Shown: piece by piece, positions 3,747 through 38,109 of the stretch | How positions within the stretch are numbered: the first letter of the stretch is position 1 | Layout of the letters: each line of letters begins with the position of its first letter | Assembly (NCBI GenBank): GCA_964649085.1 | Contig: CAZYPN010000002.1 | Span: 158,991-222,990 of the forward strand | Direction: 5' to 3' | Source of the DNA: an uncultured Burkholderiales bacterium | GTDB taxonomy: Bacteria; Vulcanimicrobiota; Xenobia; Xenobiales; JADMJV01 | Length of the DNA: 64,000 nucleotides | The notes under the pieces: model-generated | Databases searched by the model: none | The model's input: only the letters and a program-made list of their open reading frames with translations | What the model was told of the DNA's origin: nothing | Translations under genes and position numbers: made by a program

Positions 3747-3801
3747 CTTGCCCGAGTTGCCAGCCGTCGAGAATGACAAGGTTGTAAGCTCTGCCGGGCG
3801 G

Positions 3802-8305: not shown

Positions 8306-8338
8306 CTCAGAAGATTCGGATGCAACCGAGGCCTTCCT

Positions 8339-11745: not shown

Positions 11746-11843
11746 GGGTTCGCCCCCCTGCCTCGTTCGCCTTCAGCCTTAAGGCTGAAGCCAGCCAGGC
11801 TTAAGTCTGAAGGCATCGATGGGTTCAAGGCGAAGCCGCCGCT

Positions 11844-13012: not shown

Positions 13013-13020
13013 GGTGAAAC

Positions 13021-14727: not shown

Positions 14728-14816
14728 ACTTGAAGAGGATTCTAGCTTCTACGAACTAAACTCGAACAAGTCGAGGATCGGGGAACCTGCCTTCCCCCCA
14801 GCGACTTTGTTTTTGT

Positions 14817-20567: not shown

Positions 20568-20576
20568 TAGGCCTGA

Positions 20577-20906: not shown

Positions 20907-21543
20907 CCTGAGCTGGCTGCGGGCCGCTCTATTTCATAGCCTCGACCACGGCGAACTGAAAGTGCCGGCCGGATCGGCCCAGATACCCTGGCTCGACTGG
21001 CTGGGCATCGCCTGGAAGCCCGCTGCCGAGGCCGACTCGCTGGATGTTCAGTCGCTGGACGTGCCCTTCACGGCTCAGGAGTTGCGCGACCGGGGCCTGC
21101 TGGGAGAGGTCGTCTATGGCGCTCTGGTGCAAACCCGCTGGCACCCTCATCAGCAGAGCTGGGTGGCCCGAACGCGTTCGGAAATCGCTGCCTGCTACAC
21201 ATCGGCCGAACTCGATTCGTGCCACTGGCCCCTCACGCTGGAGGTCTTGGACGAACTGAATGCCTATCGACTGCAGGAGCTGACCCCAGGGGAACTGCTG
21301 GAGTATTCCAGGCCCTTCTGGAAAGGCTGCCCCAACCCTCAGGATGAGGCGGTGATGGAAGGCTGGGTCTTGCTGCACTTCAACACCTTCGAGCGCCTCC
21401 AAGACGTCGCCGAATGTTTGCATCCCTTTTTCGAACCACAGCCGCGCCCACACTGGAAATTGCCTCCAGAGATGAGTTGGAACGACGTGGAGAGCATGCT
21501 CGGCGAGGAGAGACTGAACCGGCTGCTGGGGGTCAGGTCTTGA
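20890..21543 (+). CDS. Hypothetical protein
   Basis: 217-aa ORF with protein-like composition. Overlaps neighbours by 17 nt and 4 nt. No family recognised. Confidence 0.4.
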   Translation: MSTPGDLSWLRAALFHSLDHGELKVPAGSAQIPWLDWLGIAWKPAAEADSLDVQSLDVPFTAQELRDRGLLGEVVYGALVQTRWHPHQQSWVARTRSEIAACYTSAELDSCHWPLTLEVLDELNAYRLQELTPGELLEYSRPFWKGCPNPQDEAVMEGWVLLHFNTFERLQDVAECLHPFFEPQPRPHWKLPPEMSWNDVESMLGEERLNRLLGVRS

Positions 21544-22211
21544 AGTGGTTGGCGCTGGCAACCCTGCTGGCGCCCTGGCTGCTGGCCGTCCTGCTGCTGC
21601 CCGCCCGCCGTTGGGACTGGCCCGCAGCCTATCTGGCCGTGGCCCTTTTTCTTCTGGGCGCCATTCCCCAGGCCGCCTGGTTGGCCCGCCACAACCCCCT
21701 GCTGTTTTTTCGGCGGGGCAACGAGCAAAACAGCGACAACAAAGTTCCCCCGCCCGACCGTAAGCTGGTTCTGGCGCTGAAGTTGGCGGCGCTCTCTATC
21801 GCCGTGCTTGCCGCCCTTGACTCGGGGCCTTCGGCCCGCTGGCCGTCCCCCTGGCAAATGGCATCAGGACTGTTCCTGCTCGGAGCAGGCCTGACCCTGC
21901 TGACCGCCAGCCAACGAGCCAATCGATTTTTCGAAGCCTACGTTCGCCTGCAAAGTGAATTTGGGCACCGACCCATCGACCACGGGCCCTACGCCCGCCT
22001 GCGCCATCCCGGCTATCTGAGCTATCTGCTGATCTTTGCCTCGGGCCCGTGCCTGTTGGCCTCCAACTGGGCCTGGGGAGGGGTGGCGCTGTGCCTGGTT
22101 CTCTTCGTTCTTCGGATCGTTTTCGAAGAAGGTTTCTTACGCCAGCATCTGGAGGGATACGCCGAATATTGCAGGCGAGTTCGCTACCGGCTGATCCCCG
22201 GGCTCTGGTAA
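21540..22211 (+). CDS. Isoprenylcysteine carboxyl methyltransferase (ICMT)/phospholipid methyltransferase-family membrane protein
   Basis: C-terminal 'HGPYARLRHPGYLSYLLIFASG...RIVFEEGFLRQHLEGYAEYCRRVRYRLIP' matches the ICMT/PEMT signature. Start assigned to TTG at 21540 (TTGA overlap). Start uncertain. Confidence 0.55.
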   Translation: MKWLALATLLAPWLLAVLLLPARRWDWPAAYLAVALFLLGAIPQAAWLARHNPLLFFRRGNEQNSDNKVPPPDRKLVLALKLAALSIAVLAALDSGPSARWPSPWQMASGLFLLGAGLTLLTASQRANRFFEAYVRLQSEFGHRPIDHGPYARLRHPGYLSYLLIFASGPCLLASNWAWGGVALCLVLFVLRIVFEEGFLRQHLEGYAEYCRRVRYRLIPGLW

Positions 22212-22274
22212 AAGGGTTCGAGGACGATTAGATCGGTTCGAGCCGTGGTAAGATGCCTGCTTGAGGTAGGAACG

Positions 22275-23624
22275 ATGTTAGAGCAAAAGATTCAGGGCCG
22301 AAAGGCCAACATTACCATTATCGGACTGGGCTATGTGGGGCTTCCACTGGCGCTTGGTTTCGCCCGCAAAGGGTTCAAAGTTTTCGGGCTCGACGACGAT
22401 AGCCCGAAAATTGAGAAACTGCTGTCCGGACAGGACTACATCAACGGCCAGAACGAGGTTGTGCGCCAACTGGTCCAATCGGGCCACTTCCAGCCCACTC
22501 GCAACAGCGAGGTGATCTCTCAATCCGATGTGGTTGTCATCTGCGTTCCCACCCCACTTACCCGCAACCGCGAACCGGATATTTCCTATGTGGAACAGGT
22601 GAGTCGTCGCATCGGTCAGTTGATCCAGGTGGGCAGTCTGGTGGTGCTGGAGAGCACCACCTATCCTGGCACCACCGAAGAAGTGGTGTTACCCGCCATC
22701 CTGGCCGGCAATCGGGTGACTCGAGTCGGGCAAGACTTCCATCTGGCCTTCAGTCCCGAGCGCGTCGACCCGGGCAACCCCTCGTACGACTCCTACAACA
22801 CCACCAAAGTAGTCGGTGGCGTAACGCCGGCCTGCACTCATCTGACCACCTTGCTGTACCAGGCCCTGCTCGACCATCCCGATCTGGTGAAGGAAGCCTC
22901 TTCTTCACGCGCGGCCGAGATGGAAAAACTCTTTGAAAACATCTTCCGCAGCGTCAATATCGCACTGGTGAACGAACTGGCCCTGTTGTGTCGCGAGATG
23001 AACCTGGACGCCTGGGAGATTCTCGACCTGGCCAGTACCAAGCCTTTCGGATTCATGCGATTCAACCCGGGTCCGGGTATCGGTGGGCACTGCATTCCCC
23101 TGGATCCCTTCTACCTCACCTGGAAAGCCCGTGAATTCGATTTCCCCACTCGCTTCATCGAATTGGCCGGAGAACTCAACTCGCGCATGCCCTTCCACGT
23201 GGTCGACCTGGTGGCCGAAGGGCTGGGCTCGCGAGGCCTGGAGGACGCCCGGGTGTTGCTGCTGGGCATGGCCTACAAGAAAGATGTCGCCGACCACCGC
23301 GAGTCGCCATCGCTGAAGGTCTACGACTTGCTGCTGAAGCGGGGCGCACGAGTCGACTACTTTGACCCCCTCATCCCCCAGATCAAAACCGCCGACGGCA
23401 TGCTGCGCTCGGTGGCCGCAGGAAGCTTCCAGGACTATGACTGCCTGGTGTTGATGACCGACCACAGTCAGTTCGACCTCTCCAAGCTGGTGCGTGCCTG
23501 CAAGGTGTTCGTCGACACTCGTGGGGTTGTCCGAGAACTGAATCAGGACTTTGGCGACACCCGCGTGCTGGGGCTGGGCCTACCGGCCCGGCGCACCGGG
23601 CCGCGCCTGCAAGTGGTTCACTGA
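22275..23624 (+). CDS. Nucleotide-sugar dehydrogenase (UDP-N-acetyl-D-mannosamine / UDP-GlcNAc 6-dehydrogenase family)
   Basis: 'ITIIGLGYVGLPLALGFA' Rossmann motif, catalytic 'GGHCIPLDP', C-terminal UDPG_MGDP_dh domain. ATG at 22275 preceded by GAGGTAGGAAC. Confidence 0.85.
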   Translation: MLEQKIQGRKANITIIGLGYVGLPLALGFARKGFKVFGLDDDSPKIEKLLSGQDYINGQNEVVRQLVQSGHFQPTRNSEVISQSDVVVICVPTPLTRNREPDISYVEQVSRRIGQLIQVGSLVVLESTTYPGTTEEVVLPAILAGNRVTRVGQDFHLAFSPERVDPGNPSYDSYNTTKVVGGVTPACTHLTTLLYQALLDHPDLVKEASSSRAAEMEKLFENIFRSVNIALVNELALLCREMNLDAWEILDLASTKPFGFMRFNPGPGIGGHCIPLDPFYLTWKAREFDFPTRFIELAGELNSRMPFHVVDLVAEGLGSRGLEDARVLLLGMAYKKDVADHRESPSLKVYDLLLKRGARVDYFDPLIPQIKTADGMLRSVAAGSFQDYDCLVLMTDHSQFDLSKLVRACKVFVDTRGVVRELNQDFGDTRVLGLGLPARRTGPRLQVVH

Positions 23625-25066
23625 CCGGCCAGCCAACGCGCCCGGTGGCGGAAACACAGCGCCAGCAACCCCATGGCCACTACCCCCAGCACGGCGCTGC
23701 CGGCCCAGTGCCCGGCAGCGCAGGCCCCGCTGCCCCAAAGGACCCGATGGCTGGAAACGACTCCGCTGAGGCTCAATAAGGCCAGCAGATAAGAGAACAT
23801 GGGAACCACCACCATGGCTGCAGACAACCAGTTCCGTCCCAACAGCCACAGCGAGCAGAACACCGTGGCGTAGGTGTCGAGCAGCATCCAGCCCAGGCCC
23901 AGCAACACCAGCACCCAGATCGCGCCAAGAGCTGCCGAAGAAGGAGCCTTGAGGCTCAGCACCATCGTGCCTGGAGCGATCAGCAGCAACCCTTCCAACA
24001 GGCGGGGCTGAAGCCGAACCAGCGCCAGACCATCCACCAGTTGCGTCGGAGTGAAGGAGGTCAGGGTTAAGTCGCGATTTTTCGGACCCAATTCTTGTTG
24101 GATAAAGCTAAGCTGCGATCCCCCGGCGAGCAGCAGAAGAAAGAAGGCTGCGTAGCCAAGGAAGAGCGCACCCAGGAAAAAGTGCAGCTGGCCGGCCACC
24201 GCTCCGAGGATGCCCAGGGCCAGGCAACTCAGGAACCACACCGGCGTACCTCGCCATACCAGGCGACTGCGATGGTAGCGATACAGCAACGGATGTAGTT
24301 GGCCCAACTGCGACCAACGCGAAGAAGGTCGCTGCCGGCAACCCCCTCGCCCCAGCCAGCACCAGGGGCCGCCCGATCCTGCCAGAAGCGGCAGCGGTCC
24401 GCCCCCGCTCTGGAGCCAGCGCAGCGTGAAACGACGGCAGGTCACAGCGCAGGCCAACAGCATTCCCAGAGTGACGGGAATAAGACATCCCGTGGCCAGC
24501 ACGGGCGAAACCAGCGCAAGCAGCTGGAAAGCCAGGCCCATCGCGAACAACATGCCGTAGAAGCCCACCAGATACCCGATGATCAGTCGCATGCTCTGGC
24601 CACGACTGGCCAGTACCTGGGACGCCATTCCCAAATAGTTGCAGAAAAGCGCCAGGGGCAGGAAGGCCATCCACAGCACGGTAGCCCCCACGGCCAGGCA
24701 GGGCTTGCCGCCAAGGACCGCTACCAGGCACGCCGCCAGGACCCAGCGACAGCCCTGCCACCAGCGCAGGGCCAGGAAGGCCGAACCCGTGTCCACCAGG
24801 GCCGAGGGAGAGATGCCCGAAACCAGCAGCTCATCTACGTGCTCAGACACCGAACGCAGGCAGGCCGGAATCGCCGACAAGGCCAGCACCAGGGGGATGC
24901 CTGCCAGGCTCAGCAGTACGAGGACCAGCCCAAATAACAGATCCTCGGAACCGATGGCGCTGACCAGCGCCACCGCAAACAGGGCCCAACTCCAACGGCT
25001 CCAGCGGCGCAGGCGCCCCTGGTAGAGCAGAAATAACGGATTCTCTGGGGACAGCAGGTTGCGCAT
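23618..25066 (-). CDS. Polytopic integral membrane protein, unknown function
   Basis: Very hydrophobic, 12 or more predicted TM segments. Trimmed to the ATG at 25066 to avoid overlap with the FmdB gene. Confidence 0.4.
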   Translation of the reverse strand: MRNLLSPENPLFLLYQGRLRRWSRWSWALFAVALVSAIGSEDLLFGLVLVLLSLAGIPLVLALSAIPACLRSVSEHVDELLVSGISPSALVDTGSAFLALRWWQGCRWVLAACLVAVLGGKPCLAVGATVLWMAFLPLALFCNYLGMASQVLASRGQSMRLIIGYLVGFYGMLFAMGLAFQLLALVSPVLATGCLIPVTLGMLLACAVTCRRFTLRWLQSGGGPLPLLAGSGGPWCWLGRGGCRQRPSSRWSQLGQLHPLLYRYHRSRLVWRGTPVWFLSCLALGILGAVAGQLHFFLGALFLGYAAFFLLLLAGGSQLSFIQQELGPKNRDLTLTSFTPTQLVDGLALVRLQPRLLEGLLLIAPGTMVLSLKAPSSAALGAIWVLVLLGLGWMLLDTYATVFCSLWLLGRNWLSAAMVVVPMFSYLLALLSLSGVVSSHRVLWGSGACAAGHWAGSAVLGVVAMGLLALCFRHRARWLAGQ

Positions 25067-25083
25067 CCCCAGATTATAACACG

Positions 25084-25308
25084 TTAATTCATCGAGCAGA
25101 ATCCCTGGTCGACACAGCTGCCACAGCCCCCCGGGGGACAGCTCATGGGCATCTCCTCGCCCCCCGACTGGGGAGAACTGAAGGCAGAGAACAGCTTGCG
25201 CAGGTCGCTTTGCTGGCAATGAGGACACTCTACGGCGTCCTCAGAACGGCGAAGCAGTTTCTCGAAACGGTGATGACATTGGTTGCAGGCGTATTCGTAA
25301 ATCGGCAT
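25084..25308 (-). CDS. FmdB-family zinc-ribbon protein (putative regulatory protein)
   Basis: 'MPIYEYACNQCHHRFEKLLRRSEDAVECPHCQ' is the canonical FmdB CxxC...CxxC ribbon. Transcribed divergently from the giant coiled-coil gene. Confidence 0.7.
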   Translation of the reverse strand: MPIYEYACNQCHHRFEKLLRRSEDAVECPHCQQSDLRKLFSAFSSPQSGGEEMPMSCPPGGCGSCVDQGFCSMN

Positions 25309-25380
25309 GGGGTAGATTTCTAGATTTCGTTTGGGTTCCTTTTAACGGGAAAACCGCTCAGACTTTCGAAGGCAGCCCCA

Positions 25381-28300
25381 GTGTCCCATCAACAACCCAT
25401 TACGCTGCAAGAGCGGCTAGAGAATATCAAGCAACGAGCCAGCGCGGTACGGGGACAGATGGAGGGGCGTCCCACGCGGACCGATGAAACCCGCGAGGAC
25501 TGGGGAGCCGTCGGTGCCTCGCTGCAGGTGCGCCTGGAGCAGCTGAGCCAGCGGCTACAGGAACGAGACCGTCAACTGGCCGAGCTGCAGCAGCGCCTCA
25601 ACGAGTCCGACTCGGGCCAGGGTCTGCGCCGCAAACAGCTGGAGCAGCTGGCGCAACAGCTCAGCTCCAGCCTGGACGAGAAAAAGGTGCTGCAGGGCCA
25701 GCTTCACTCGGCCGAAAGTCAACGTCAACAGCTGGAACTGCAGCTGCAACTGGTTCGCGACCAGCTGCAGGAGCAGCAAAAATTGCTGGGGCAGAGTCAG
25801 GGGCGGGTGCATGACCTGCGCCAGGAATTGCTGCAGCAGCAACGCCGCGTGCGCGTGGTGGACCGGCTCCAGCTGCAGCTCGACGAAGCCGGTCTGAATC
25901 TCGACGATTTGCTTCATTCGCTGGCCCAACTGGAAGGCGACTCTCCGCTGTTGCAGGCGCTTCGTGACCAGATCGGCCAGCTGCAGGGCCAGCTCGAGGC
26001 CAGTCAGCAGCGAGAACAAAGGCTGCTGCAGCACCTGCAAGATTTGAAAGCCCGCCAACAAGACCTGGAGGCCGAGAAAAACCACCTGGGTTCCGATTTT
26101 GCCGAGCTACACCGCCAGCTGCTGGAAAATCAGCGCGAGCTTGGCCAGGCGCGCGGCGAGCTGAAACGCTGGATGGAGCTGCGCAGCGAGGTCGATCCTG
26201 AACTGCCGCGCGAGGTACAGCATCTGCGCGAGCGCAGCCAGAAGCTCGAAGCCAAGTTGCGTCAGGCCGTGCTGGCGCTGGGCGAGTCGCGCCAGGCCAC
26301 CGAGCAAGAACGAGAAGCGCGCGAACTGGCCGAGCAGCTCCTGGGGAAAAGCCAGCAGCGCCTGGTTCAGCTCGAGGTAGAACTGGACGAGCAGGTGTCG
26401 GCGCTGCAGAACTCGTGGGAAGACGTCAGCCGCCTCGAACAAGAGCTGGAACAAAGCCGCCACCACAATCGCAGTCTGCAACTGCAGGTGGGCTCCTCGG
26501 ACGAACTGCAACAACGCCTACTGCAAAGCGACCAGCAGGCACAGGAGCTACAGCAGAGGCTGGCCCACAGCGACCAGGAAACTCAACAGCTGCGCCAGCA
26601 GCTGCAAGAAAGCCGCCAGCAAGCTGCCAGCTCGGCCCAACAACTGGAAGAACTCGAGCAGCAGCGCAGCCAGCTTGAGCAGCGCCTCGAGCGGGCCCAG
26701 CTGGTGCTTCACGAGCTGCAAAACCGGGCAGCCGAGGGCCAGCAAGAGCAGGTCCTGCGCCAGCAGTGGGAAGAACGCGCCCTCAAGGCCCAGGCTCGCT
26801 TTCACCAGGCGGTCGAGCGTTTGCGTTCGCAAACCGAGCAGCTTCGCCAGCAGCAAGCCGACCTGGAAAACTGGCAATTGCGCTCCGAACAGGTCCAACA
26901 GAGCCTGGAAGACAGCCAGGAGCGCCAGGTTCAGCTGCGGCGACAGCTGGAACGCTGGCAAGAAATCAGTGGTGAGTGGCAGCGGGTTGCCGAGGTTGGC
27001 CAGGAGGGCACGGCCTTCCTTGAGCAGCGGCTGGCCGAGCATCAAGAGCAGCAACTTCAGGCTCAACAGCACAGCCAGGAGTTGCAGCAGGGGCTGATTC
27101 AGTACCAGCAAGATATCCTTCAACTCGGTCAGGCTCTGGCCGAGCTCGAAGAAAGCAACCGCAGCCTGGAAACAGAACTGGGCCTGACGCGCCAGGAGCG
27201 CGACCAGCTTCATCTGCGGGTCGAGCAGCTGGTGGAAGAGGGCCGGGCCCGTCAACACGGGTTTGAGCAACGCTGGGACAAACTCAAGACTCGCCTGGGT
27301 CAGGTCCAGTCGGACCTGGAATACAGCCAGCAACGCGGCCTGATGCTGCAGGACAAACTGCAGCAAGTCGTTGAGGTCGTCCGCGAAGAAAAGCACGCTC
27401 ATCAGCAAACCCGACAACAAAAGGACCAGCTTCAGGAAGCCCTGGCCCAACTGCAAGAGAGCGCTCGCCAGAAGGACTCGCTGCTCGAGCAGCAGAGACA
27501 AGAACTCGACACCCAATCCATGGCTCTGGAAGAGTCCTGGGAAGAGGCCCATCGCCTGGGGGAAGACCTTGAACGCGAGCGACAGTCCGCGGCTCAGCTT
27601 CGCCAGCAGTTGCAAGAGCTGCGAGCCCAGCAAGATAGTTTGCGGGAAGAGCGCGATGCTCTGCGCGAGCATTTTGAAGAACTGCTACAACAAACCGATC
27701 TCGAGCGAGAGGAGTCGGCCCGAGAACTACAGCGCCAGCTGGAACTCAATCACGAGCAAACCCGTGCGCTACAGCTTCGACTGAAAGAAGTTAGCGAAGA
27801 ACTGCTGTCGGTTCAGCAACGGTTGCAAAAAGCCCAACAAAAGCTCTTGCAGGCCGTAGACAGCCTGCGTCAAGAGCGCCTGCTGCGCCAGGAACTCTCC
27901 CAGCAGATCGATGAGCGCGACCTGATGCTGGAAGAACAGACGCAGCTGCTGGCTCAGCGTGCCGAAGAACTGGCCAGCGCCCAACACCGCTGGTCGTCCA
28001 CCGACCAGCAACGTCAGCAGCTGCAGGCCAACCACCTGACCACCGTGGCCGAACTGGAGGCCCTGCGCCAGGAGTACGAAACCCAGGTGCTGGCCCTGGA
28101 AGAGTCATGGGAGGAAGCCAGTCGCCTTCAAGAGTCGCTCGACAGCGAGCGCACTCGGGCCCAGGCTCTGGAGCAGCAATGGGCGCAGGCCCAACAGGCC
28201 CAGGTTCAACTGCTGTCACAGCTCGACCAGCTGCAGGCCGCCTATTCCGAACTGCAGAGTCGCCACAGCGGTGCGCTGGAGCAGCAACAGCAGGAGCAGC

Positions 28301-31300
28301 AAGCCCTGGAGCAGCTCCATCTCCAAACCACCACGCTTCAGGAGCATCTCAAGCACCGGGTGGACCAACTGCAGCAGCTGAAAGCCTTGCGCGATCAGAG
28401 CCAGCAGCGGGCCCTGGCCTTGGAAGAGAAGCTGCGCCAGGCGGTGGTTCGGCTGGCCGAGGAAAAGCAGGCCCGCCAACAGCTGGCCCAACAAAACGAC
28501 CAGCTGATCGCTCAGCTCGCTCAGCTGGAACAAGAGGCCCGTCAGTCGCAAAGCGATCTGGTGGCCGTGCGCCAGGAGTTGGAAACCCAGCTCATGGCCC
28601 TGGAGGAGTCCTGGGCCGAGAGCAGTGCGCTTCAGGCCGCATTGAACGAGGCACGGGCCGGAGCCGAACAAGAACGAAAAGCCCACGAAGAAGCCCGCGC
28701 ACGCGTCGAAATCTTGCAGAAAGCTCATCAGCACGAAGTTTCCCTGAGAGAAGAGCTGGAGCAGGAGCTGGAAGAACTGCTACAGCTTCAGCTGCAGCTT
28801 GAGGAAGAAAAACAATCTCATCGCCACACCGGCCAGAACCTCGAACAGGTCAGGCAACGCCTGCTGGCTGTGGAACAGGAACGTGACCAGAGCGAGCAAC
28901 GCAGCCAGGCCCTCGAGGCCAAGGTGCTGCAGCTGGCCGAGCTGCTCAAGCAGCATCAGCAGCTGCGCCAGGCCGAGAAGCTCAAGGCTCAGGATCGCCT
29001 GCAGAAGTTCAGCGATGAAGTCCGCCAGCTGCGCCAGCAGCTGAGCACCAGCGAGGAAGAGAGCGCTACCCAGCAGCTGGCCCTCCAGGAAGCCTGGTCG
29101 GAAATGTCTCAGCTGCAAGAACAGCTGGAAGCCGAGCAGCAGAAACTTCTACAACTGACCGAAGAACGGGGCCGCCTCCAGGTCGACATGGCCGAGCTGC
29201 TGGCCCACAGCCAGTTGGAGAGCCAGCGCTCGCAGCAGCAGATCGGGGAATTACGCACAGAAATCCAGGCCCTGCTGGGGCAACGCCACAAGCTGGTGGA
29301 CGAGCTCAACACGCGCGGTGGCCAGCTTAAGCAACTGGCCTCCAACCAGGGAGCCTTGCTCGACCAGGTCAAGCGACAACATCAGCAGATCGACACCTTG
29401 CGAGCCCAGATGGAGGCTCGCGAGGACGATGTGGCTGGCCTGCAGCGCCAGCTCGAAGAGGAAGAGCAGCAGCGGCGACATCTGCTGGACGAACTGGAGG
29501 TGGCCACTCAGGCCAGCGACCTGCTGCAGCAAGAGTTGGGCGAGCGCGAGAACGAACTGCAATCGCTGCACGAGCGGCTGACTCGACTCGACGCGGCCCT
29601 GAATCAGGCCCAACAACAGGTGTCTTTGCTGGAAAGCCAGCGCGAGGCCTCGCAGGCGCAACTGCAGCAGCTCAGTCACAACCACGCTGAACAGATGGAC
29701 GAGCTGACGCGTCAGCTGCAGCGGCGCGAGCAGGAACTGGAAACGCTGCGCCAGATCGAAGCCGGTGCCCAGCAGGCGCTGGCCCAGGCCCAAGAGGAGC
29801 TCAACCGCTCGCAACATCAACAGCAGACACAGCAGCAACAGCTTCAGCACCATCGCCAGGAACAAAGCCGTCTGCAAGAAACCGTAGAACGCCTGGGACA
29901 GCGCTTGAGCCAGGTGGGTGGGGCCTTCCAGCAAGCCAAACTGCAGCTGGCGGCCCGCACCCAGCAACTGCAACAGGTTCAGGACAGTCGCCAGCAACTT
30001 GAGGAAGAGCTGGTTCTGGCCCAGGCACACGGCCAGCGAGAAACGGTCCGCGCCGATGAACAGCTCGAGCGGGCCGATCTGCTAGAAGCCCGACTGGAGC
30101 AGCTGACCGCCCAACAGCAAGAGCTGCTCGTCCAGGTAGAGCAGCTGCATCAACAACGCGTACCGCGGGAAGAATGGCAGGCCCTGGAGCGGCAGGCACG
30201 GGCCGGCGACCAGGAAATTCAAGGCCTGAAGGCTCAGCTCACCGACCTGCAACTGGCCCTCCAGCAGTCGGAAGAGTGGCGAGAGTCGCAGCAGCGCGAG
30301 CGCGAGGCACTGGAGTCGCGCCTCGAACGCACCCGCCAGGAGCTGGTGCAGGCCGTCGAGATCCAACAGGGATTGAAGGAACGCCTGCTGAGCGTGGTGG
30401 AAAAATTTCGCCACAGCGAGGCCCTGCGCCAGCGCCAGCAAGAGGAGTTGGAGGGCCTTCAGGAAGAGCGCCGGAACTGGCAGCTGCTCGAGCAAGAGTT
30501 GCAAGGGCGCGTCGTTCAGCTAGAGCAGATGGCCCTGGAGGGGCACCAGCAGCTCTCGCAGGAGCGCCAACAGCACGAACAACAGCTGCTCGAACGCGAC
30601 CAGCTGCTGGAGAGCTTTCGCAACGAGCTCGAGCAGGCCCGCGACCAGGTCGATCAGCTGGCTCGTGAGCTGATCGAGGCCCAGGATCGGACCTTCCAGC
30701 TGCAACAGGAGCTGGAAGTCAACGAAGACGAGTCGCAACGCGATCGAACGCGACGCGAAGAACTCAACAGCCTGGTCGCCAGTCTCGAACAACAGCTGCG
30801 CCAGCTCGGCGAAGAATCGGCCAGCCGCCAGGAGCAGCTGGAGGACCAGCTGGTTCATCAGGAAGGTCAGCTGAAGTCGGGACAGCAGGCTCTGCTGCAG
30901 GCTCAGAGCCAGCTGCGTCTGCTGCAGACCGAGCGAGACAAGCTGGTGCGGGCCTATCAGCAAAGCCGTCAGGCCCTGATCGAACACCAGCAGCAAGCGG
31001 TGGAGCAGCAGCAAAAGTGGGAACAGGTTGCCAGTGAACTGCGGGTAACTCGAACCCAACTCGGCAAAACTCAGGAAGAGCTTCAGCTGGCCCATCTGCA
31101 GGTGGAAACCCTCGAGGGCGACCTGCAGCGCCTCGAGTCGCAGCGAGATGAACTCGCCCAGCGTTCCGACTCGCGTTTCCAGGAATATGAAAACGAACTG
31201 GCTCAGCTGACGGTAGAGCTTACTGAGAAGCGCCAGGAAGCCTATCGCCTGCGCAACAGCGGCGAAGGTCTGCGCCAGGAAAACCAGTCGCTCACGCGGC

Positions 31301-34300
31301 GACTGGAAGAAACCCTGCGGGAAAAGACCGAGCTGACCCAGCGACGCGAGTTTGAAACGCAACAGTTCAAAAGCGTGCTTGAGCAGCTGCTCGGTCAACG
31401 CCAGCTGCTGGAGAGCAAGCTCAAAGAAGTCGCGGCTCAGCGCAAAGAATTCCTGCTGGAACTGAAGCGCGAGCGCCAGCTCAGCAACCAGCAGCAACAG
31501 GACCTGACCCAGCTGCAAACCCGCTTTGACGAATCGCAGGCCCTGCTGCAGCAACAGCTGCAGCAGCTCGAGCAAGTACGTGGGTATTTCGACGAAGCTC
31601 GCCAGCAAGGCCAGCAGCTCCAGCAGCAGCTACAGCAAGAATTGGGGCGTTCCAGCCAGCTGGAAGAGCAGCTGCACCATCACCAAGAGGGCTGGCAACG
31701 CGACCGCGGCCAGCTGGAACAGGAACGGCAACAGCGGCAACGGCTCGAGGTTGAGGTCGAAGCTGGCCAACGTCAGCGCGGCCAACTGGAAAGCCAGCTG
31801 GACCAACAGCGTGCTCAAATCGAGGGCCTCGAAGTCGAGCTCACCAGGCTGCAGGCAGAGTCCCATCAAGATCAGCAGCGTCTGAAGCAGGAGGCCGAGC
31901 TTCTGCAGCGCCAGCTGGAGCAGCTGAGCAGCCAGCGCCAGGGCCTGATGGACAAGCTCAAAACCGTGGCCGGGGAAAGGGCCGACCTGAAGCAGGCGCT
32001 GCAGGCCCAGCAGGAAGAGCTGGCCGAAATCCAGCTGCGCCGTGAAGTGCTGGAACTGCGCCTCGTCCAGGTAGAGGGCGAACGCGACCTGCTGCAGTCG
32101 GAATCGGAGCAATACCGGCAGCGGGTCGACGAGCTGGAAGAGCGCCTGGAACGCAGCGCCTCCGACTTCCAACAGGCCCAGGAACAGCTCCAGTTGCTGT
32201 CGGAACTGCGCGCCCAGGGTGCGCGCCAGGAACAGCAGCTGCAGGCCCTGGAGTGGGGGCGGGAAGCAGACGGACAAAAGATCGGCGAACTGCAGCAACG
32301 GCTGGAACAGGTTGACCAGCAACGCCAGGCCCTGGAAGTGGAACTGGCCCAGGCACGTGGCCGCCTGGAAGAAGCCGCCGTTCGTCGTGAGGAGCTGCAG
32401 TCGGAGATCGAAGACGCGGCTCGTCAGCTGCAGGGCCTGCGTTTTGAAGCCTCCGAATTGCGCCAGTCCCAGCAGAAGTCCAAGGAGTCGCTGCTGCTCT
32501 CGCAGCAAAAGGTCGAACAGCTCGAGGCCGAGCTCGGTGAACTGCGCACCCAGCATCAACAGCTTCAGGAACAATCGGCTCGCAACGAGGAAGAGCTGCG
32601 GCTTCTGCTGCGCCAGAGCCAGCAAGAATCCGAAGAACATCGCCAACTGTCCGAGGAACTGCTGCAACAGACACGAGAGCAGTTGGAACAGAAGGAAGCC
32701 CACCTTCTGAAGCTGGTCGATACGCTGGGTCGCGCCAAGGACCGGATGCGCGACCAGAAGGCGCGCGTGGCCGAACTGGAAAGCGAGCTGGCACAGGTCC
32801 GTGAGCAGGCCCAGGAGCATTTTCAGAGACTGATTCGCGTGACCCGCGAACGAGAAGATCTGTCGGAACTGAAGCAGCGCGAATTGGGCGAGCTGCAGCG
32901 CCAGCTACAGGCCGCCAGCGCCGAACTGGAACAGCGCCAGCGCGAACTGCTGGCGCTGGAGGCGCAAAACCAGCTGCAGCAGCGCGAACTGGTCGAGCTG
33001 AGCCGGCAGGAAGTCGCTGCCGAAGAACAGCGCACTCTGCTGCAGTCGCAACTCTTTGAACTGGAACAACAGCTGCGCTCGGCAGCCGAAGACAAGCAGC
33101 AGCTGGAGCGAGAACGAGACAGCTGGCAAGACAGGCAAGAACAAACCCAAAACGAGCTGGAGCAGCTGTCCATTGAGCATCGCGAGGTGCTGGATTCGAG
33201 GCAACAGCTCCAGGCAGAGCTGGAGCGCCTCTCGGTCCAGCTGAGCCAGCTGGAAGAGCACTCGAGCAGCGATTTGCAGCAGCGAGAACAGCAGATTCAA
33301 AAGCTCGGCGAGGCCTATGCCAAAATCCGTCAGCGCTTCGTAGAAAACCAGCAGCAACTGGCCGAGGCCCAGGCCGAGCAGGCCGCGCTGCGGCAGCGAA
33401 ACGAGCAGATCGAGGCAGAGCTGGGCCAGGCTCATGAACGATTGGAGCAGTTGCAGAGCGAAGCTCGCCAGCTCGAGGCTCAGGTCCACGAGCGCCAACT
33501 TGAACTGCAAGATCAGCAGCAGCAGCTAGAGCAACAGCGCAACGAACTGACCCGCCTTGGCCAGGAGAGCGAGAAGCAACGTTTCGAGCTGCAGCGACTG
33601 GCCCCGCTGGAAGCCCAGAACCAGGCTCAACAACGCGAGCTCATGGCCCTGAGCCGACAGGAAGCCGAGCTGGAGGAGCAGCGACAGCGGCTGCAGTCGA
33701 ACCTGGAACAGCTGAACCTGCGCCAGCAGAAGCTCGAGGGTGAACTGGCCGAGAGCGAGCGACGCCATTCCAAACTACAGGCCGAGCACTTAAAGCTGCA
33801 GCAAAAGCAGGCCACGGCCGAGGCCCAACTCGAGAGTCAACAGCAGGAAGTCGAGCGACTGCAGACCGAGCACCGCCTGGCCCGGCGCGAGGTTGAAGAG
33901 CTTCAAGAGCAACTCCAGCAGCGCGAAGTATCGACCCAAAAGCTGGGCGAGGCTTATGCCAAAGTGCGCCAGAAGCTGGTAGAAACCCAGCAGCAACTGG
34001 CCGAAGCTCAGGCCGAGGCCGAGCAGCAACAACGCCGCGCCGACCGTCTTGAGGACGATCTGGGCGGGCTGAAAGAAGAGCTGCGACTGGCCACTTTCGA
34101 GCGCAGCGCCGCTGAAGAACGCTGGCGAGGCGCCAGTCAACAGGTGCAGCAGGCGGGCGAAGAGCGCGAACGTCTGTCGCAGCTCAACGAAGAACTCAAG
34201 TCGAATCTGCGCCACACCCAGCAACTGCAGCAACAGGGCGAAGCCGACCTGGTCGAACTGAAGTTGCAGCTGCAGCAGGAACAGGAGCGAGCCGGGCAGC

Positions 34301-37300
34301 TGCAGCAAAAATTGCAGCAGGCCATTGGACGCCTGCAGCACACCAAACAGGCACTGCAGCAACGTCAGGACGAGTTGCTGGCCGGCAAAGAGGAAAAACT
34401 CCAGCTGGAATCCGAGCTGGAACAGCGCCAGCAAGCCTATAGCGAGCTGGAGCAGCAGTTGCGCCAGGCCCAGCAGCGACTGGCGGAACTGGAACCCGAA
34501 GTTGAAGGGCAGCGCGGGTTGCGGCTCGAGCTTCACGGCCTGCGAAGCCAGCTCGACAGCCTGCAGCACCAGCTGCAGCGAGCCCAGCAGCGAGAACAAG
34601 CCCTGGAAAGCCGGCTGGAGCAGGCCCAGGTTCAAGAACAGGAGCTGACCGGCAAGCTGCAACGCAGCCAGGCCAAAGAGCGCGAGCTGGAGCATCAACT
34701 GCAACGCTCGCAACAGCGAGAGCGAGAGATCGATAGTCAGCTGCAACGGGCGGGCAGCCGCGAGCGCGACCTGGAACAACAGCTGCGAGCGGGTGTCGAG
34801 CAAGAAGAGCGTCTGCGGGCCCAGCTCACCCAGGCCTGGAGCGATCTCCAGCAATCCGAACTGCTCCAGCAGCGGCTGCAGGACGAATTGAGCCAGTCTC
34901 GCTCCCAGGGCTCGCGACGTGAGAAGCAGGTGGCCGGGCTGGAAGAGCAGCTGGCCGGCCTTCAGGAATCGCTCGAGCGGGCTCGGCTGGATGGCGAGAA
35001 GCAGCTGGAGCAACATCGCGAGCGCGAGAGCCAGCTGCTGGAACAGCTAGAAAAGCTGGGAGAAGCCCTCAAGCTGCACCGCAGCAAGGCCAACGAGGCC
35101 CTGGCCGGGCTGAAACAACGCAGCGAAGAGGTCAGCGGTGAGCTGCAACTCTCGCTCCAGGAGCGCCTGGAGCTGCGCACACGGCTCGACCAGCAGGAAC
35201 ATCTCCTGGAAGAGCTGCACCACGAAGTGGACACCCGGCGCCAGCGCGAGGCCCACCTCGAGCAGGCTCTGGCCGAGGCCCGGCGGCGCGGCGGCGAACT
35301 TCAGGCGCGAGCCGGCGAGCTGGCACAATCGCTGGACGAGAGCCAGAACTTCCGGCGGCTGTTGCAAGAAGAGCTGGCCCAACAGCGTGAGCAGAGCCAG
35401 CACGACCTGGACACCCTGAATGCTCGCCTGCATGAGGCCGAGTCACGCGGCCGCGACCTGGAGGAAACCCGTTCCTTACTGCTGGAACAAGAGCAGAAGG
35501 CCCACGAGTTGAGCCTGAAACTGCGCGAGTTCCAGCAAAGCGCCATCCTTCAAGAAACCGAGCTGCAGCAGCTTCGGCAATCGCTCAAGCACGAGGAAGG
35601 CAAGCTTCAACAGCAGCAAAAGGCCCAACTCCACCAGCAGGAAATGCACCAGCAAAGGGTGCTGCAACTGCAACAGGACCTGGCCGACTTGGAAGGGCGA
35701 CTCGAAGAAAGCGAGCGTAACAACCACAAGCGTGAGCAGATCATCGGCCAGCTCAAGCAGCGCCTCGGCCAGGCGATGCAAGACCTCAGCCAGCGCCAGA
35801 CCGAGCTCCATGAGTCGCAACTGAGCCTGGAGAGGGCAGGGCGCGAACTGGAACTGAGTCGCAGCGACGGCCTGGGCAAGGAAGCGCGCATCGCCGAACT
35901 CGAGCAAGACCTCGAGCAGCGCATCCAGCGTGCCAATTCTGCCCAGCAGGAAGTCGAGAAGCTCTGGCAGCGCCTGCAGCGCGAAGAAGAACAGCGAGCC
36001 CAGCTGGCCTCCGATCTGGAAAGGCACCAGCAAGAAGCCGACCGGTTGCAGCAGCAGCTGGATGAAGCCACGCTGGAAAAACGCCAGCTGTTGCTCGACC
36101 TCGACGACGCCGCCAATCAAAAACTGCAGCTGGCGCTGGAGCTCGATCGCTCACTGGAGCAAAAGACCGCGGAAATTCAGCGCTGGCAGAAGCTGCAGGA
36201 AGAACAGCAACGCCGCCAGGACGACCTGGAAGGTCGCCTATTACTGGCCCAACAGCGAATCGAGGTCCTGACCGGAGAGCTGGAAGAACGCGAAGCTCGC
36301 CTGCAGGCTGAACGCAAGTCGGCCCAGGACCGCCAGCAAGAGTTGCGGGGCCGACTGGAACGCCAGGTGCTGGAGGCGCAGGCCCAGCAGCTGGAGCGCG
36401 AGGCCCGAGTGCAGCAACTCGAGCGCGAACAGCGCAAACAAGCCGAAGAGCTGGAACGTCAGCTGCAGGAGTTGCAAACGCAGCGCTCGGCCCTCGAAGG
36501 CGAGCTGGCCAGCCTGAAGGCCCTGGGCCAGTCGAGCCAGGCCAGCTACCAGGCCCGAATCGAGCAGATGCAGCGCGAATACGAGGGTCTGCAACGCCAG
36601 CTCAGCGAGCAGGAAGAAGAGGTTCATCAGCAACGCCTGCGGGTCTCCCAGCTGGAGGCCGATCAGGTGCTGCTCAAGCAGGCACTGCACCAGTCGGAAA
36701 CCGCCGCTCAGCAGCAACTACAGCGTCTGGAACGCCTGCAACTGGAGCGCGAGGCTCTGGAACAGCAGTTGCGTCAGCAGGAAGAGCTGGCCCACAAACT
36801 GTCGCAGCGGGCCGAGGCCGCCGGGCAAGAAGGCGAAGAGCTGCAGCGACGTCTTGAAGACGAGCAGCTCTTGCGACAGAGCCAGTGGGACGACATGAAC
36901 ACGCGCCTGGTTGAGGCCGAACGCAGGCACGCCGAGAGCGAAAGGGCGCGCGAAGAGCTGAGCCATCGCCTCAATGACGGTCAGCTGAATTACGAGATGC
37001 AGCTGTCCGAGCTGCGCCGTCAGCTCGACCAGGCTCGACTGCGTCTGGAGCGCGAGGGCGAATTTGTGCAGGGCCTGCAGGAGCGCCTGAAAGAGTCGCA
37101 GGCAGCCCAAATCCGTTTACAACAGGAGCAAGGCGAGGGGCGCCAGCAGTTGCTCGAGGCCCAGGCCGAACTGGAGCGTGCCCAGCAGGCGATGGAACGC
37201 ACCCTGAGCGAGATGCAGCTGCAGGAACGCAAGGTGGAACTGAGTCGCGAGTCTCAGGAACAGCAAAGACAGCTGTTGTTGCAGCGGGAAAGCGAGTTGC

Positions 37301-38109
37301 ACCAATTGGAAGAGGTGCGGGCCCGCCTGGACCTGCAGGTTGCCGATCTGGACCAGGAACGCGCCCGACTGCAGAAAGAGTCGGATCAACTCCGTCAGGA
37401 GCTGCAGACCTCGGGGCACCGCCTGCGCGAACAGGAAGAACGAGCACGTCTGCTTCAGGCCCAGCTCAACGTGGCCATGCAGCAGGCCGAAGAGGCCGAT
37501 CACCTGCAGCTCATGCAGATGCAGTATGAGCAAGACCTTGCCCGTCTACGCGGAGAACTGGACCAGAAACAGGCCGAAATCGACCAGCTGCAAGCCCAGG
37601 CCCGCAGCCTGTCTCGATTGCCCAACGAACTCAGCGACCGGTCGCGTCGACTGGAAGAACAGCAGGCCGAAATCCAACGGCACCGCAGTCGGGTGGACGA
37701 ATTGGAGTCGGAACTCTCGGATAGCCGTTTCTGGCGCCGAGATGCGGAAACGCGCCTGGAACGCAGCCAGCAATCGCTGGCCGAGGCCCAACGCAGCCTG
37801 GAAGCCGCCCGGCTGGAACGCGAAGAGCTGCGACGACAACTCGACGAACTGCGCGGCCAGGATGTTCGCACCCCCTACCTGCGCGCCCAGGAAGAACTGG
37901 CCGCCCTGCGTCAGGAACTGGCCCAGGCCCGAAAGCGAGAGGAACGACCGCCCGAGCCCACCCCCGAGGCCAGCCCCCCGCCACCCCGCTCGCGCCCCAC
38001 CAGCCGTAAAGCGCCTGCCAGCAAGCCTCAGGCCTGGACCCTGTTGGAGGGCTCCGAGACCAGCAGCGATCCGGCCGGTGGTGGTCTGGAGTTACCGGGG
38101 TTCTCGTGA
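25381..38109 (+). CDS. Giant (4242 aa) coiled-coil protein, Q/E/L/R-rich, modular repeats, Pro-rich basic C-terminal tail
   Basis: Uninterrupted 12,729-nt ORF. Heptad-like Leu spacing throughout, e.g. 'LQQRLNESD...LEQLAQQL'. No enzymatic motif. C-terminus 'RKREERPPEPTPEASPPPPRSRPTSRKAPASKP...'. Start GTG at 25381 (uncertain; next ATG at 25459). Confidence 0.8.
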   Translation: MSHQQPITLQERLENIKQRASAVRGQMEGRPTRTDETREDWGAVGASLQVRLEQLSQRLQERDRQLAELQQRLNESDSGQGLRRKQLEQLAQQLSSSLDEKKVLQGQLHSAESQRQQLELQLQLVRDQLQEQQKLLGQSQGRVHDLRQELLQQQRRVRVVDRLQLQLDEAGLNLDDLLHSLAQLEGDSPLLQALRDQIGQLQGQLEASQQREQRLLQHLQDLKARQQDLEAEKNHLGSDFAELHRQLLENQRELGQARGELKRWMELRSEVDPELPREVQHLRERSQKLEAKLRQAVLALGESRQATEQEREARELAEQLLGKSQQRLVQLEVELDEQVSALQNSWEDVSRLEQELEQSRHHNRSLQLQVGSSDELQQRLLQSDQQAQELQQRLAHSDQETQQLRQQLQESRQQAASSAQQLEELEQQRSQLEQRLERAQLVLHELQNRAAEGQQEQVLRQQWEERALKAQARFHQAVERLRSQTEQLRQQQADLENWQLRSEQVQQSLEDSQERQVQLRRQLERWQEISGEWQRVAEVGQEGTAFLEQRLAEHQEQQLQAQQHSQELQQGLIQYQQDILQLGQALAELEESNRSLETELGLTRQERDQLHLRVEQLVEEGRARQHGFEQRWDKLKTRLGQVQSDLEYSQQRGLMLQDKLQQVVEVVREEKHAHQQTRQQKDQLQEALAQLQESARQKDSLLEQQRQELDTQSMALEESWEEAHRLGEDLERERQSAAQLRQQLQELRAQQDSLREERDALREHFEELLQQTDLEREESARELQRQLELNHEQTRALQLRLKEVSEELLSVQQRLQKAQQKLLQAVDSLRQERLLRQELSQQIDERDLMLEEQTQLLAQRAEELASAQHRWSSTDQQRQQLQANHLTTVAELEALRQEYETQVLALEESWEEASRLQESLDSERTRAQALEQQWAQAQQAQVQLLSQLDQLQAAYSELQSRHSGALEQQQQEQQALEQLHLQTTTLQEHLKHRVDQLQQLKALRDQSQQRALALEEKLRQAVVRLAEEKQARQQLAQQNDQLIAQLAQLEQEARQSQSDLVAVRQELETQLMALEESWAESSALQAALNEARAGAEQERKAHEEARARVEILQKAHQHEVSLREELEQELEELLQLQLQLEEEKQSHRHTGQNLEQVRQRLLAVEQERDQSEQRSQALEAKVLQLAELLKQHQQLRQAEKLKAQDRLQKFSDEVRQLRQQLSTSEEESATQQLALQEAWSEMSQLQEQLEAEQQKLLQLTEERGRLQVDMAELLAHSQLESQRSQQQIGELRTEIQALLGQRHKLVDELNTRGGQLKQLASNQGALLDQVKRQHQQIDTLRAQMEAREDDVAGLQRQLEEEEQQRRHLLDELEVATQASDLLQQELGERENELQSLHERLTRLDAALNQAQQQVSLLESQREASQAQLQQLSHNHAEQMDELTRQLQRREQELETLRQIEAGAQQALAQAQEELNRSQHQQQTQQQQLQHHRQEQSRLQETVERLGQRLSQVGGAFQQAKLQLAARTQQLQQVQDSRQQLEEELVLAQAHGQRETVRADEQLERADLLEARLEQLTAQQQELLVQVEQLHQQRVPREEWQALERQARAGDQEIQGLKAQLTDLQLALQQSEEWRESQQREREALESRLERTRQELVQAVEIQQGLKERLLSVVEKFRHSEALRQRQQEELEGLQEERRNWQLLEQELQGRVVQLEQMALEGHQQLSQERQQHEQQLLERDQLLESFRNELEQARDQVDQLARELIEAQDRTFQLQQELEVNEDESQRDRTRREELNSLVASLEQQLRQLGEESASRQEQLEDQLVHQEGQLKSGQQALLQAQSQLRLLQTERDKLVRAYQQSRQALIEHQQQAVEQQQKWEQVASELRVTRTQLGKTQEELQLAHLQVETLEGDLQRLESQRDELAQRSDSRFQEYENELAQLTVELTEKRQEAYRLRNSGEGLRQENQSLTRRLEETLREKTELTQRREFETQQFKSVLEQLLGQRQLLESKLKEVAAQRKEFLLELKRERQLSNQQQQDLTQLQTRFDESQALLQQQLQQLEQVRGYFDEARQQGQQLQQQLQQELGRSSQLEEQLHHHQEGWQRDRGQLEQERQQRQRLEVEVEAGQRQRGQLESQLDQQRAQIEGLEVELTRLQAESHQDQQRLKQEAELLQRQLEQLSSQRQGLMDKLKTVAGERADLKQALQAQQEELAEIQLRREVLELRLVQVEGERDLLQSESEQYRQRVDELEERLERSASDFQQAQEQLQLLSELRAQGARQEQQLQALEWGREADGQKIGELQQRLEQVDQQRQALEVELAQARGRLEEAAVRREELQSEIEDAARQLQGLRFEASELRQSQQKSKESLLLSQQKVEQLEAELGELRTQHQQLQEQSARNEEELRLLLRQSQQESEEHRQLSEELLQQTREQLEQKEAHLLKLVDTLGRAKDRMRDQKARVAELESELAQVREQAQEHFQRLIRVTREREDLSELKQRELGELQRQLQAASAELEQRQRELLALEAQNQLQQRELVELSRQEVAAEEQRTLLQSQLFELEQQLRSAAEDKQQLERERDSWQDRQEQTQNELEQLSIEHREVLDSRQQLQAELERLSVQLSQLEEHSSSDLQQREQQIQKLGEAYAKIRQRFVENQQQLAEAQAEQAALRQRNEQIEAELGQAHERLEQLQSEARQLEAQVHERQLELQDQQQQLEQQRNELTRLGQESEKQRFELQRLAPLEAQNQAQQRELMALSRQEAELEEQRQRLQSNLEQLNLRQQKLEGELAESERRHSKLQAEHLKLQQKQATAEAQLESQQQEVERLQTEHRLARREVEELQEQLQQREVSTQKLGEAYAKVRQKLVETQQQLAEAQAEAEQQQRRADRLEDDLGGLKEELRLATFERSAAEERWRGASQQVQQAGEERERLSQLNEELKSNLRHTQQLQQQGEADLVELKLQLQQEQERAGQLQQKLQQAIGRLQHTKQALQQRQDELLAGKEEKLQLESELEQRQQAYSELEQQLRQAQQRLAELEPEVEGQRGLRLELHGLRSQLDSLQHQLQRAQQREQALESRLEQAQVQEQELTGKLQRSQAKERELEHQLQRSQQREREIDSQLQRAGSRERDLEQQLRAGVEQEERLRAQLTQAWSDLQQSELLQQRLQDELSQSRSQGSRREKQVAGLEEQLAGLQESLERARLDGEKQLEQHRERESQLLEQLEKLGEALKLHRSKANEALAGLKQRSEEVSGELQLSLQERLELRTRLDQQEHLLEELHHEVDTRRQREAHLEQALAEARRRGGELQARAGELAQSLDESQNFRRLLQEELAQQREQSQHDLDTLNARLHEAESRGRDLEETRSLLLEQEQKAHELSLKLREFQQSAILQETELQQLRQSLKHEEGKLQQQQKAQLHQQEMHQQRVLQLQQDLADLEGRLEESERNNHKREQIIGQLKQRLGQAMQDLSQRQTELHESQLSLERAGRELELSRSDGLGKEARIAELEQDLEQRIQRANSAQQEVEKLWQRLQREEEQRAQLASDLERHQQEADRLQQQLDEATLEKRQLLLDLDDAANQKLQLALELDRSLEQKTAEIQRWQKLQEEQQRRQDDLEGRLLLAQQRIEVLTGELEEREARLQAERKSAQDRQQELRGRLERQVLEAQAQQLEREARVQQLEREQRKQAEELERQLQELQTQRSALEGELASLKALGQSSQASYQARIEQMQREYEGLQRQLSEQEEEVHQQRLRVSQLEADQVLLKQALHQSETAAQQQLQRLERLQLEREALEQQLRQQEELAHKLSQRAEAAGQEGEELQRRLEDEQLLRQSQWDDMNTRLVEAERRHAESERAREELSHRLNDGQLNYEMQLSELRRQLDQARLRLEREGEFVQGLQERLKESQAAQIRLQQEQGEGRQQLLEAQAELERAQQAMERTLSEMQLQERKVELSRESQEQQRQLLLQRESELHQLEEVRARLDLQVADLDQERARLQKESDQLRQELQTSGHRLREQEERARLLQAQLNVAMQQAEEADHLQLMQMQYEQDLARLRGELDQKQAEIDQLQAQARSLSRLPNELSDRSRRLEEQQAEIQRHRSRVDELESELSDSRFWRRDAETRLERSQQSLAEAQRSLEAARLEREELRRQLDELRGQDVRTPYLRAQEELAALRQELAQARKREERPPEPTPEASPPPPRSRPTSRKAPASKPQAWTLLEGSETSSDPAGGGLELPGFS
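32950..34030 (+). repeat. Two diverged ~640-655-nt direct repeats inside the giant coiled-coil gene
   Basis: 'EAQNQ(L/A)QQREL(V/M)(E/A)LSRQE' at ~32957 and ~33610. 'QKLGEAYAK(I/V)RQ(R/K)(F/L)VE(N/T)QQQLAEAQAE' at ~33298 and ~33938. Confidence 0.5.

Follow-up and report, generated by a model that had tools for sequence, protein, structure and literature searches.

A giant gene for a heptad coiled-coil protein

The window, the whole 64,000-nucleotide stretch of DNA that was analysed, contains a giant gene on the forward strand (25381..38109, 12.7 kb), identified from its open reading frame and translation. The gene encodes a 4,242-residue product without a Pfam domain. The stop codon of the giant gene overlaps the start of a downstream gene of the histone deacetylase family, and divergently transcribed genes upstream encode an FmdB-type zinc-ribbon protein and a 482-residue membrane protein. 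No tRNA or Rfam elements were found across the window, and a megablast search against plasmids returned no match. The pN/pS ratio among strains is approximately 0.10 in the frame of the giant gene. Therefore, the giant gene is truly protein-coding, and the long open reading frames on its antisense strand are by-products of codon symmetry.

The giant protein consists predominantly of glutamine (20%), leucine (17%), glutamate (16%), and arginine (11%), and contains no cysteine. Fourteen of its 23 prolines are located within the last approximately 60 residues, and about nine precede this C-terminal tail. The hydrophobic periodicity of the protein has a sharp peak at 3.5 residues, with a local spectral power of 0.81 at this period compared to 0.31 at 3.643. 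The giant protein is thus almost wholly a heptad coiled coil, and it is uncharacterised. The N-terminal quarter contains a five-copy module with the motif ALEESWEE, whereas the C-terminal tail ends with GGLELPGF, which is also present in the two orthologues described below (L001 and L002). The ends of the protein are short and non-helical. Neither a signal peptide nor a wall anchor is visible in the translation.

The Pfam scan of the giant protein identified no family above its cut-off, and the NCBIfam scan gave only fragmented matches to the coiled-coil arms of SMC and Rad50 proteins, all below their cut-offs. The sole match from a search of PDB sequences was a weak one to a kinesin coiled coil. 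By itself, a giant orphan coiled-coil protein is a modest curiosity.

Two head-to-tail units within the coiled coil

A preliminary description of the locus had reported an internal duplication of approximately 650 nt within the giant gene, and the in-frame alignment of the two units confirms a tandem duplication with this period. Repeat unit A (32941..33591, forward strand) encodes residues 2521–2737, and repeat unit B (33592..34242, forward strand), which abuts unit A, encodes residues 2738–2954. The units were delimited by local alignment, in which they are 48% identical in amino acids and 55% identical in nucleotides over 195 aligned codons. They are arranged head-to-tail and in frame. An HMM built from both units recovered two copies, at residues 2521–2736 and 2738–2954, with scores of 323 and 327 bits, respectively. 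The HMM scores are negative elsewhere in the giant protein, and a third, degenerate unit was found neither upstream nor downstream of the pair.

Conserved DNA between the units is limited to two islands of approximately 100–170 nt each. Island 1 of unit A (32947..33063, residues 2523–2561, LLALEAQNQLQQRELVELSRQE..EEQR..LQS) corresponds to 33598..33714 of unit B (residues 2740–2778), which includes Pro2742 (nucleotides 33604–33606) at the unit junction. Island 2 of unit A (33274..33444, residues 2632–2688, LQQREQQIQKLGEAYAKIRQRFVENQQQLAEAQAE) corresponds to 33913..34083 of unit B (residues 2845–2901, LQQREVSTQKLGEAYAKVRQKLVETQQQLAEAQAE). All four copies are on the forward strand and were defined by blastp matches, DNA blocks, and dS/dN estimates, and those of island 2 also by the motif shared with orthologues. 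Comparison of protein chunks by blastp with composition-based statistics gave 67% identity at an offset of 217 residues for island 1 and 60% identity at an offset of 213 residues for island 2, each with an E-value of approximately 7e-8. The islands are collinear between the units, with both their order and their spacing kept. At the DNA level, the repeat search recovered the two block pairs at the positions given by the preliminary description: 32954–33053 and 33605–33704 are 70% identical at an offset of 651 nt, which equals 217 codons or 31 heptads, and 33277–33378 and 33916–34017 are 79% identical over 102 nt at an offset of 639 nt. The blocks thus lie where they had been placed, but "long near-duplicates" is too strong a description of them, as the conserved islands are short, reach 70–79% identity, and belong to units that are 55% identical overall. 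The pair in island 2 is the top match when the gene is compared to itself by blastn (E 1.7e-19), and the pair in island 1 falls short of an E-value of 1e-3. Between the islands, identity is at background, with 4–8 of 15 residues and 31–62% of nucleotides shared. The duplication of the entire 217-residue unit is thus suggested by the collinearity and spacing of the two islands, not by end-to-end similarity.

The best heptad register is identical on either side of the unit junction. The single-sequence AlphaFold2 model of residues 2500–2960 (mean pLDDT 82) is entirely helical and comprises two predicted unbroken helices, 237 and 215 residues long. The lone helix break in the model comprises residues 2738–2744 (QRLAPLE) and coincides exactly with the unit junction. 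Pro2742 of unit B stands where unit A has an alanine, and it is one of only about nine prolines outside the C-terminal tail.

A small set of codons (CAG, CTG, GAG, and similar) makes up the giant gene, and therefore the null distribution for the repeat was drawn from the gene itself by comparing all its in-frame 100-nt segments with one another (8.7 million pairs). The background identity of these pairs is 33.6% on average, with a standard deviation of 5.3. Only three places in the gene reach at least 68% identity: 33262–33415 at an offset of 639 nt (best 79%), 32947–33055 at an offset of 651 nt (69–70%), and 28045–28153, the pair of which is unrelated to the repeat units. The possibility that no duplication took place, and that the blocks reflect chance or compositional similarity within a coiled coil rich in glutamine, glutamate, leucine, and arginine, is consistent with the numerous weak matches in the gene (60–75% identity over 20–45 nt, repeat families D1–D10), with the background similarity of the sequence between the islands, and with the composition-corrected phmmer search, which found nothing outside the locus. 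However, the repeat blocks are 7–8 standard deviations above the mean of the same-gene control pairs. The local alignment of units A and B has a score of 314, which none of 1,500 random pairs of segments from the same protein reached (median 145, 99th percentile 195). Relative to shuffled sequences, the alignment has a z-score of 15.5. Furthermore, each island retains its low blastp E-value under composition-based statistics, and the two lie in the same order and at the same spacing. Since the blocks are far above the null from the same gene, the observed duplication is real, and a compositional origin of the blocks appears disfavoured and very improbable from these sequence comparisons.

Age of the duplication and stability of the repeat

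The Nei-Gojobori estimates of divergence between the units are a dS of 1.70 and a dN of 0.29 for island 1, a dS of 0.78 and a dN of 0.20 for island 2, and a dS of 1.52 and a dN of 0.83 for the rest of the unit, which is 33% identical. The dS of the units overall is 1.35, and dN/dS in the islands is about 0.2. Synonymous sites between the units are near saturation, and the duplication is old, not recent as had been proposed. Two peptide motifs in each unit are under purifying selection. The synonymous divergence of strains in the giant gene (pS) is 0.027, and comparison with the dS of the units therefore makes the duplication tens of times older than the radiation of the strains.

Where the residues of the two island 1 copies agree, 12 codons are also identical, which matches the 11.8 expected from codon usage, and the DNA similarity of island 1 is therefore explained by conserved residues and codon bias. 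The corresponding numbers for island 2 are 21 observed and 14.2 expected. This excess, together with the lower dS of island 2 than of island 1 and the position of the longest identical word of the gene within island 2, would fit an old duplication in which island 2 (33277–33378 and 33916–34017) was later homogenised by a short gene-conversion tract. Such an event would account for island 2 being the best DNA match of the gene. However, the dS of 0.78 is still approximately 30 times the divergence of the strains, codon identity can also be raised by strong purifying selection on a motif conserved in the family combined with biased codon usage, and no strain carries SNP patterns copied between the units. 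We therefore consider gene conversion unlikely, and a younger age of the island 2 part is conceivable as an alternative to it.

Exact direct repeats in the giant gene do not exceed 18 nt, and one word of this length, CCAGCAGCAACTGGCCGA, occurs at 33348 and 33987. Eighteen nucleotides is less than any usual assembly k-mer, and it is also less than the length of identity needed for efficient RecA-dependent recombination. Therefore, the repeat causes no k-mer ambiguity and offers little substrate for recombination.

The flanking small genes served as exact-match anchors for finding the locus in assemblies of other samples. Exact searches for the giant protein, with its N-terminus set at three alternative positions, gave no match, since a few residues vary from strain to strain. 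Four assemblies from four other samples, produced by three assemblers (L092, Logan, DRR438461; L093, ENA MEGAHIT, ERZ27240673; L095, Logan, SRR34831191; and L096, ENA SPAdes, ERZ794928), align without gaps to 25381–35308 of the window with 99.1–99.4% identity. The called products of L092 and L096 are 4,242 residues long, equal to the protein from the window. Within 32941–34242, the strains differ by 6–15 SNPs, about two thirds of which are synonymous, and by no indels. The number of repeat copies is two in all five assemblies, including the window. The comparison of copy number among strains that the preliminary description had suggested as a check thus revealed no variation, and the view of the repeat as a hot spot for in-frame length variation is not supported by the strains sampled, which show only SNPs, most of them synonymous.

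The preliminary reading, according to which a recent duplication of approximately 650 nt with near-identical copies endangers short-read assembly and drives in-frame changes of copy number by slipped recombination, correctly describes the tandem in-frame arrangement and its period. Short-read contigs of the locus also often stop inside the giant gene, with ends at 27037, 29248, 30268, 30469 (L094), 31011 (L097), 34388 (L081), 35819, and 35892. Nevertheless, none of the observed contig ends lies within 32941–34242, and the four independent assemblies span both copies gaplessly, two of them with the same total length. The units are 55% identical in nucleotides (79% in their best block of 102 nt), their dS values are 0.8–1.7, and their longest identical run is 18 nt, all of which likewise argues against near-identical copies. 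Of the features that characterise a recent, length-variable tandem DNA repeat, the units have the head-to-tail in-frame arrangement, but neither near-identical copies nor a difference in copy number between strains. Divergence and the comparison of strains have already refuted the reading of a recent duplication, to which we assign next to no probability. The repeat is stable, with no sign of assembler confusion or of copy-number variation among the sampled strains. The assembly of the region can be trusted, as it is reproduced in four other samples and contains nothing repetitive enough to collapse.

Based on the alignments and the comparison of strains, the two units very probably go back to an old duplication, in tandem and in frame, of a segment of 217 codons (651 nt, 31 heptads) of the giant 4,242-residue heptad coiled-coil protein, which is encoded by an uncultured relative of the Vulcanimicrobiota/Eremiobacterota. 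The duplication preserved the heptad register and presumably originated in unequal crossing-over or slippage during replication. The units then diverged almost to the compositional background of the gene, while two motifs in each were kept by purifying selection. The residual 70–79% DNA similarity of the two blocks of approximately 100 nt is mainly a by-product of the conserved amino acids and codon bias. The duplication is real but ordinary, since the copies have diverged too far to endanger the assembly or to change in number from strain to strain.

Relatives of the giant protein and growth of the coiled-coil rod

Orthologues of the giant gene were reached indirectly, by a search with the downstream deacetylase gene. 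The best matches of the deacetylase, with 57–60% identity, are in a Vulcanimicrobiota metagenome-assembled genome (MAG; L001), an EREM-labelled MAG of isolate SZAS-1 (L002), and an unclassified bacterial MAG (L003). L001 and L002 contain a collinear giant coiled-coil gene upstream of the deacetylase gene, and the 5′ part of this gene is missing from both loci. The two orthologues belong to contigs JAFKGI010000061.1 and JAFEBA010000101.1. The encoded giant proteins share blocks of 40–65% identity with the protein from the window. The unit HMM matches each orthologue once, with the half containing island 2 only, at residues 763–834 of the L001 protein and 814–932 of the L002 protein. Island 2 copy B is 56% identical to residues 765–803 of L001. 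Island 2 can be aligned in all four sequences as ..[QD]QR....KL[GS]EA[YF]xK[IV]R.., and the motif KLGEA[YF]xK occurs twice in the protein from the window and once in L001, with the variant KLSEAFHK in L002. Island 1 was not recognisable in L001 or L002.

Outside these MAGs, no homologues of the giant protein were found. Protein searches with the repeat region and with the C-terminal 660 residues produced no scoring match among the 8,000 candidates that a saturated word filter let through. A phmmer search with the repeat region against 1.84 billion representatives identified no homologue; its lone match (P0001) was rejected as an unrelated repeat protein rich in serine, threonine, and asparagine. 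Searches of genome and metagenome contigs with the repeat region, and of metagenome contigs with the conserved block that follows the repeat, aligned from three sequences, revealed no relative. Nothing relevant was found in the literature on giant bacterial coiled-coil proteins or on coiled coils of Eremiobacterota.

The distribution of island 2 among the four sequences makes it most parsimonious that the duplication was gained after the split from the L001 and L002 lineages, as judged from the two 5′-cut orthologous loci, and the loss of a copy in the L001/L002 lineage instead of a gain in the lineage of the window is conceivable. One module (residues 3363–3561, ..REQIIGQLKQRL..) occurs once in the protein from the window but in 3–4 copies in L001 and L002. 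The genes of L001 and L002 also contain diverged tandem duplications of their own, of 522 nt (77% identity, offset 570) and 348 nt (75% identity, offset 411). Because different modules are duplicated in the window and in the orthologues, the family grows by lineage-specific segmental duplication. The second motif of the unit (..QQR....KLGEA[YF]xK[IV]R..) is ancestral to the family and single in the nearest orthologues, and the duplication would therefore have given the protein a second copy of a conserved site and a helical rod longer by approximately 217 residues. The added length of coiled coil may be about 32 nm. The conserved islands are candidate sites for partner binding or assembly, and the giant protein may have a cytoskeletal or scaffold role.

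Bacterial proteins rich in coiled coils or resembling intermediate filaments include crescentin, FilP, Scy, and the cyanobacterial CCRPs. The giant protein resembles them in that it appears cytoplasmic, is nearly all coiled coil, lacks a catalytic domain, and has short non-helical ends, and by analogy its rod architecture is that of an intermediate filament-like protein. Scy is approximately 1,300 residues long, and the giant protein is about three times that length. Scy and FilP have a 51-residue repeat with 3.64 residues per turn, whereas the giant protein has the canonical 3.5-residue periodicity and not the 51-residue repeat. Pfam and NCBIfam scans detected no sequence similarity of the giant protein to crescentin, FilP, Scy, or the CCRPs.

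Many stretches of the giant protein match NCBIfam SMC models in the manner of the arms of SMC, Rad50, and MukB (TIGR02168, 253 bits, 14 stretches). Among the stretches listed, the matches are confined to the coiled-coil part of the models, and the score for TIGR02168 is well below the cut-off of 567 bits. The protein contains no ATPase head (no SMC_N or AAA-type Pfam match), no match to SMC_hinge, and no cysteine for a CxxC zinc hook, and an identity as SMC, Rad50, or MukB was rejected. Spectrin-type repeats, three-helix bundles of approximately 106 residues to which the half-units of approximately 108 residues might be compared, were also rejected, as Pfam gave no match and the helices of the AlphaFold2 model run for 237 and 215 residues without interruption.

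Streptococcal M protein and the alpha C protein of group B streptococci contain tandem repeats and vary in size by intragenic recombination. The giant protein shares with these fibrillar coiled-coil surface proteins an in-frame tandem coiled-coil repeat, the length of which preserves the heptad frame. However, the repeats of M protein and alpha C protein are nearly identical in DNA and vary in number by strain, whereas the copies in the giant protein are 55% identical and constantly two. Furthermore, no signal peptide or wall anchor is visible in the translation of the giant protein. Golgins such as giantin and the myosin rod are giant coiled-coil tethers and rods of eukaryotes. They have in common with the giant protein a near-unbroken heptad coiled coil of kilo-residue length, long-period internal repeats, and short terminal peptides that may dock partners. 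The giant protein is bacterial, has no homology to giantin or myosin, and lacks a motor, GRIP, or transmembrane domain, so the likeness is an analogy of architecture.

We speculate, with low confidence, that the product of the giant gene may be a bacterial cytoskeletal or "ruler" element of a kind not described before. Such an element would form a canonical heptad rod of approximately 4,150 residues and up to approximately 0.6 µm, its conserved C-terminal peptide (W[ST]LL[ED]...GGLELPGF) would serve for docking, and it appears to occur only in a lineage related to Vulcanimicrobiota. Each lineage would adjust the length of the rod and the number of its sites for partner binding, for instance KLGEAYAK, by duplicating modules of approximately 140–250 residues. 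If so, the duplication in the window would be the fossil of one length-tuning step. Apart from this idea, the duplication is a routine example of the growth of long coiled-coil proteins by segmental duplication. It flags two short peptide motifs that were held constant while their surroundings drifted; one of them is common to distant orthologues, and both are obvious first targets for study.

Unit junction and further repeat modules of the giant protein

The first approximately 4,160 residues of the giant coiled-coil protein contain about nine prolines. One of them, Pro2742 (window positions 33604–33606), is located exactly at the boundary between the tandemly duplicated units A and B, where the sequence reads RLAPLEAQ; the counterpart in unit A is LLALEAQ. 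Pro2742 is also the site of the only helix break predicted in the single-sequence AlphaFold2 model of residues 2500–2960.

Residues 285–1285 (26233–29235) contain a second repeat system, independent of units A and B. It is formed by five copies of a module of about 165–190 residues, centered on the motif [AL]L[EQ][EN][SA]W[EAS][ED], which occurs at residues 345, 719, 909, 1077, and 1240. The closest pair of copies at the DNA level (28050–28111 and 28554–28615) is 84% identical over 62 nucleotides. The module containing REQIIGQLKQRL is present once in the window (35467–36063, residues 3363–3561), whereas the orthologous loci L001 (about 3900–6250) and L002 (about 4150–6100) contain three to four copies. 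The giant genes of L001 and L002 also carry diverged tandem duplications of their own. Therefore, different modules were expanded in different lineages.

Coding strand, strain diversity, and contig breaks

Long antisense open reading frames of up to 408 codons are located opposite the giant gene, including those at 31630–32820, 32905–33510, and 33790–35016 on the reverse strand. They occur because the codons of the giant gene are strand-symmetric and rich in CAG, CTG, GAG, and CTC. The pN/pS of 0.10 among strains in the forward frame shows that the real gene is that on the forward strand. In one low-coverage assembly, L086 (ena:ERZ794918 NODE_4922, coverage 2.4), genes were called on the wrong strand in the region of antisense reading frames.

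Contig L086 matches positions 21733–27037 of the window at 98.9% and continues for 1.4 kb beyond the junction at 27037 with sequence that has no match anywhere in the window. The junction is located in the N-terminal repeat region of the giant gene, outside units A and B. L086 is probably a chimeric low-coverage contig, or possibly a structural variant.

Over positions 25381–35308, the giant gene has a pS of 0.027–0.029 among strains and about 8.6 SNPs per kb. Its synonymous diversity is about six to seven times higher than that of the neighboring TamB-like gene (14817–20567, pS 0.004); the UDP-glucose dehydrogenase gene has an intermediate pS of 0.015. The raised synonymous diversity may contribute to the breaks of short-read contigs within the giant gene.

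C-terminal tail and gene context

The C-terminal 55 or so residues (37940–38106) are the only non-helical part of the giant protein. A proline-rich linker is followed at the extreme C-terminus by the tail QxW[TS]LL[ED]...GGLELPGF, which is shared with L001 (8470–8640). The conserved tail matches no known motif and resembles a short docking peptide.

The neighboring regions 1–11862 and 12242–21543 encode the flagellar export protein FlhA (FHIPEP) and type IV pilus components (PilB-like ATPase, PilM, and PilC-like T2SSF). Their other products include an Hpt-domain protein, a carbamoyltransferase, and a 1,916-residue TamB/AsmA-family protein. This gene content indicates a diderm-like and probably motile host.
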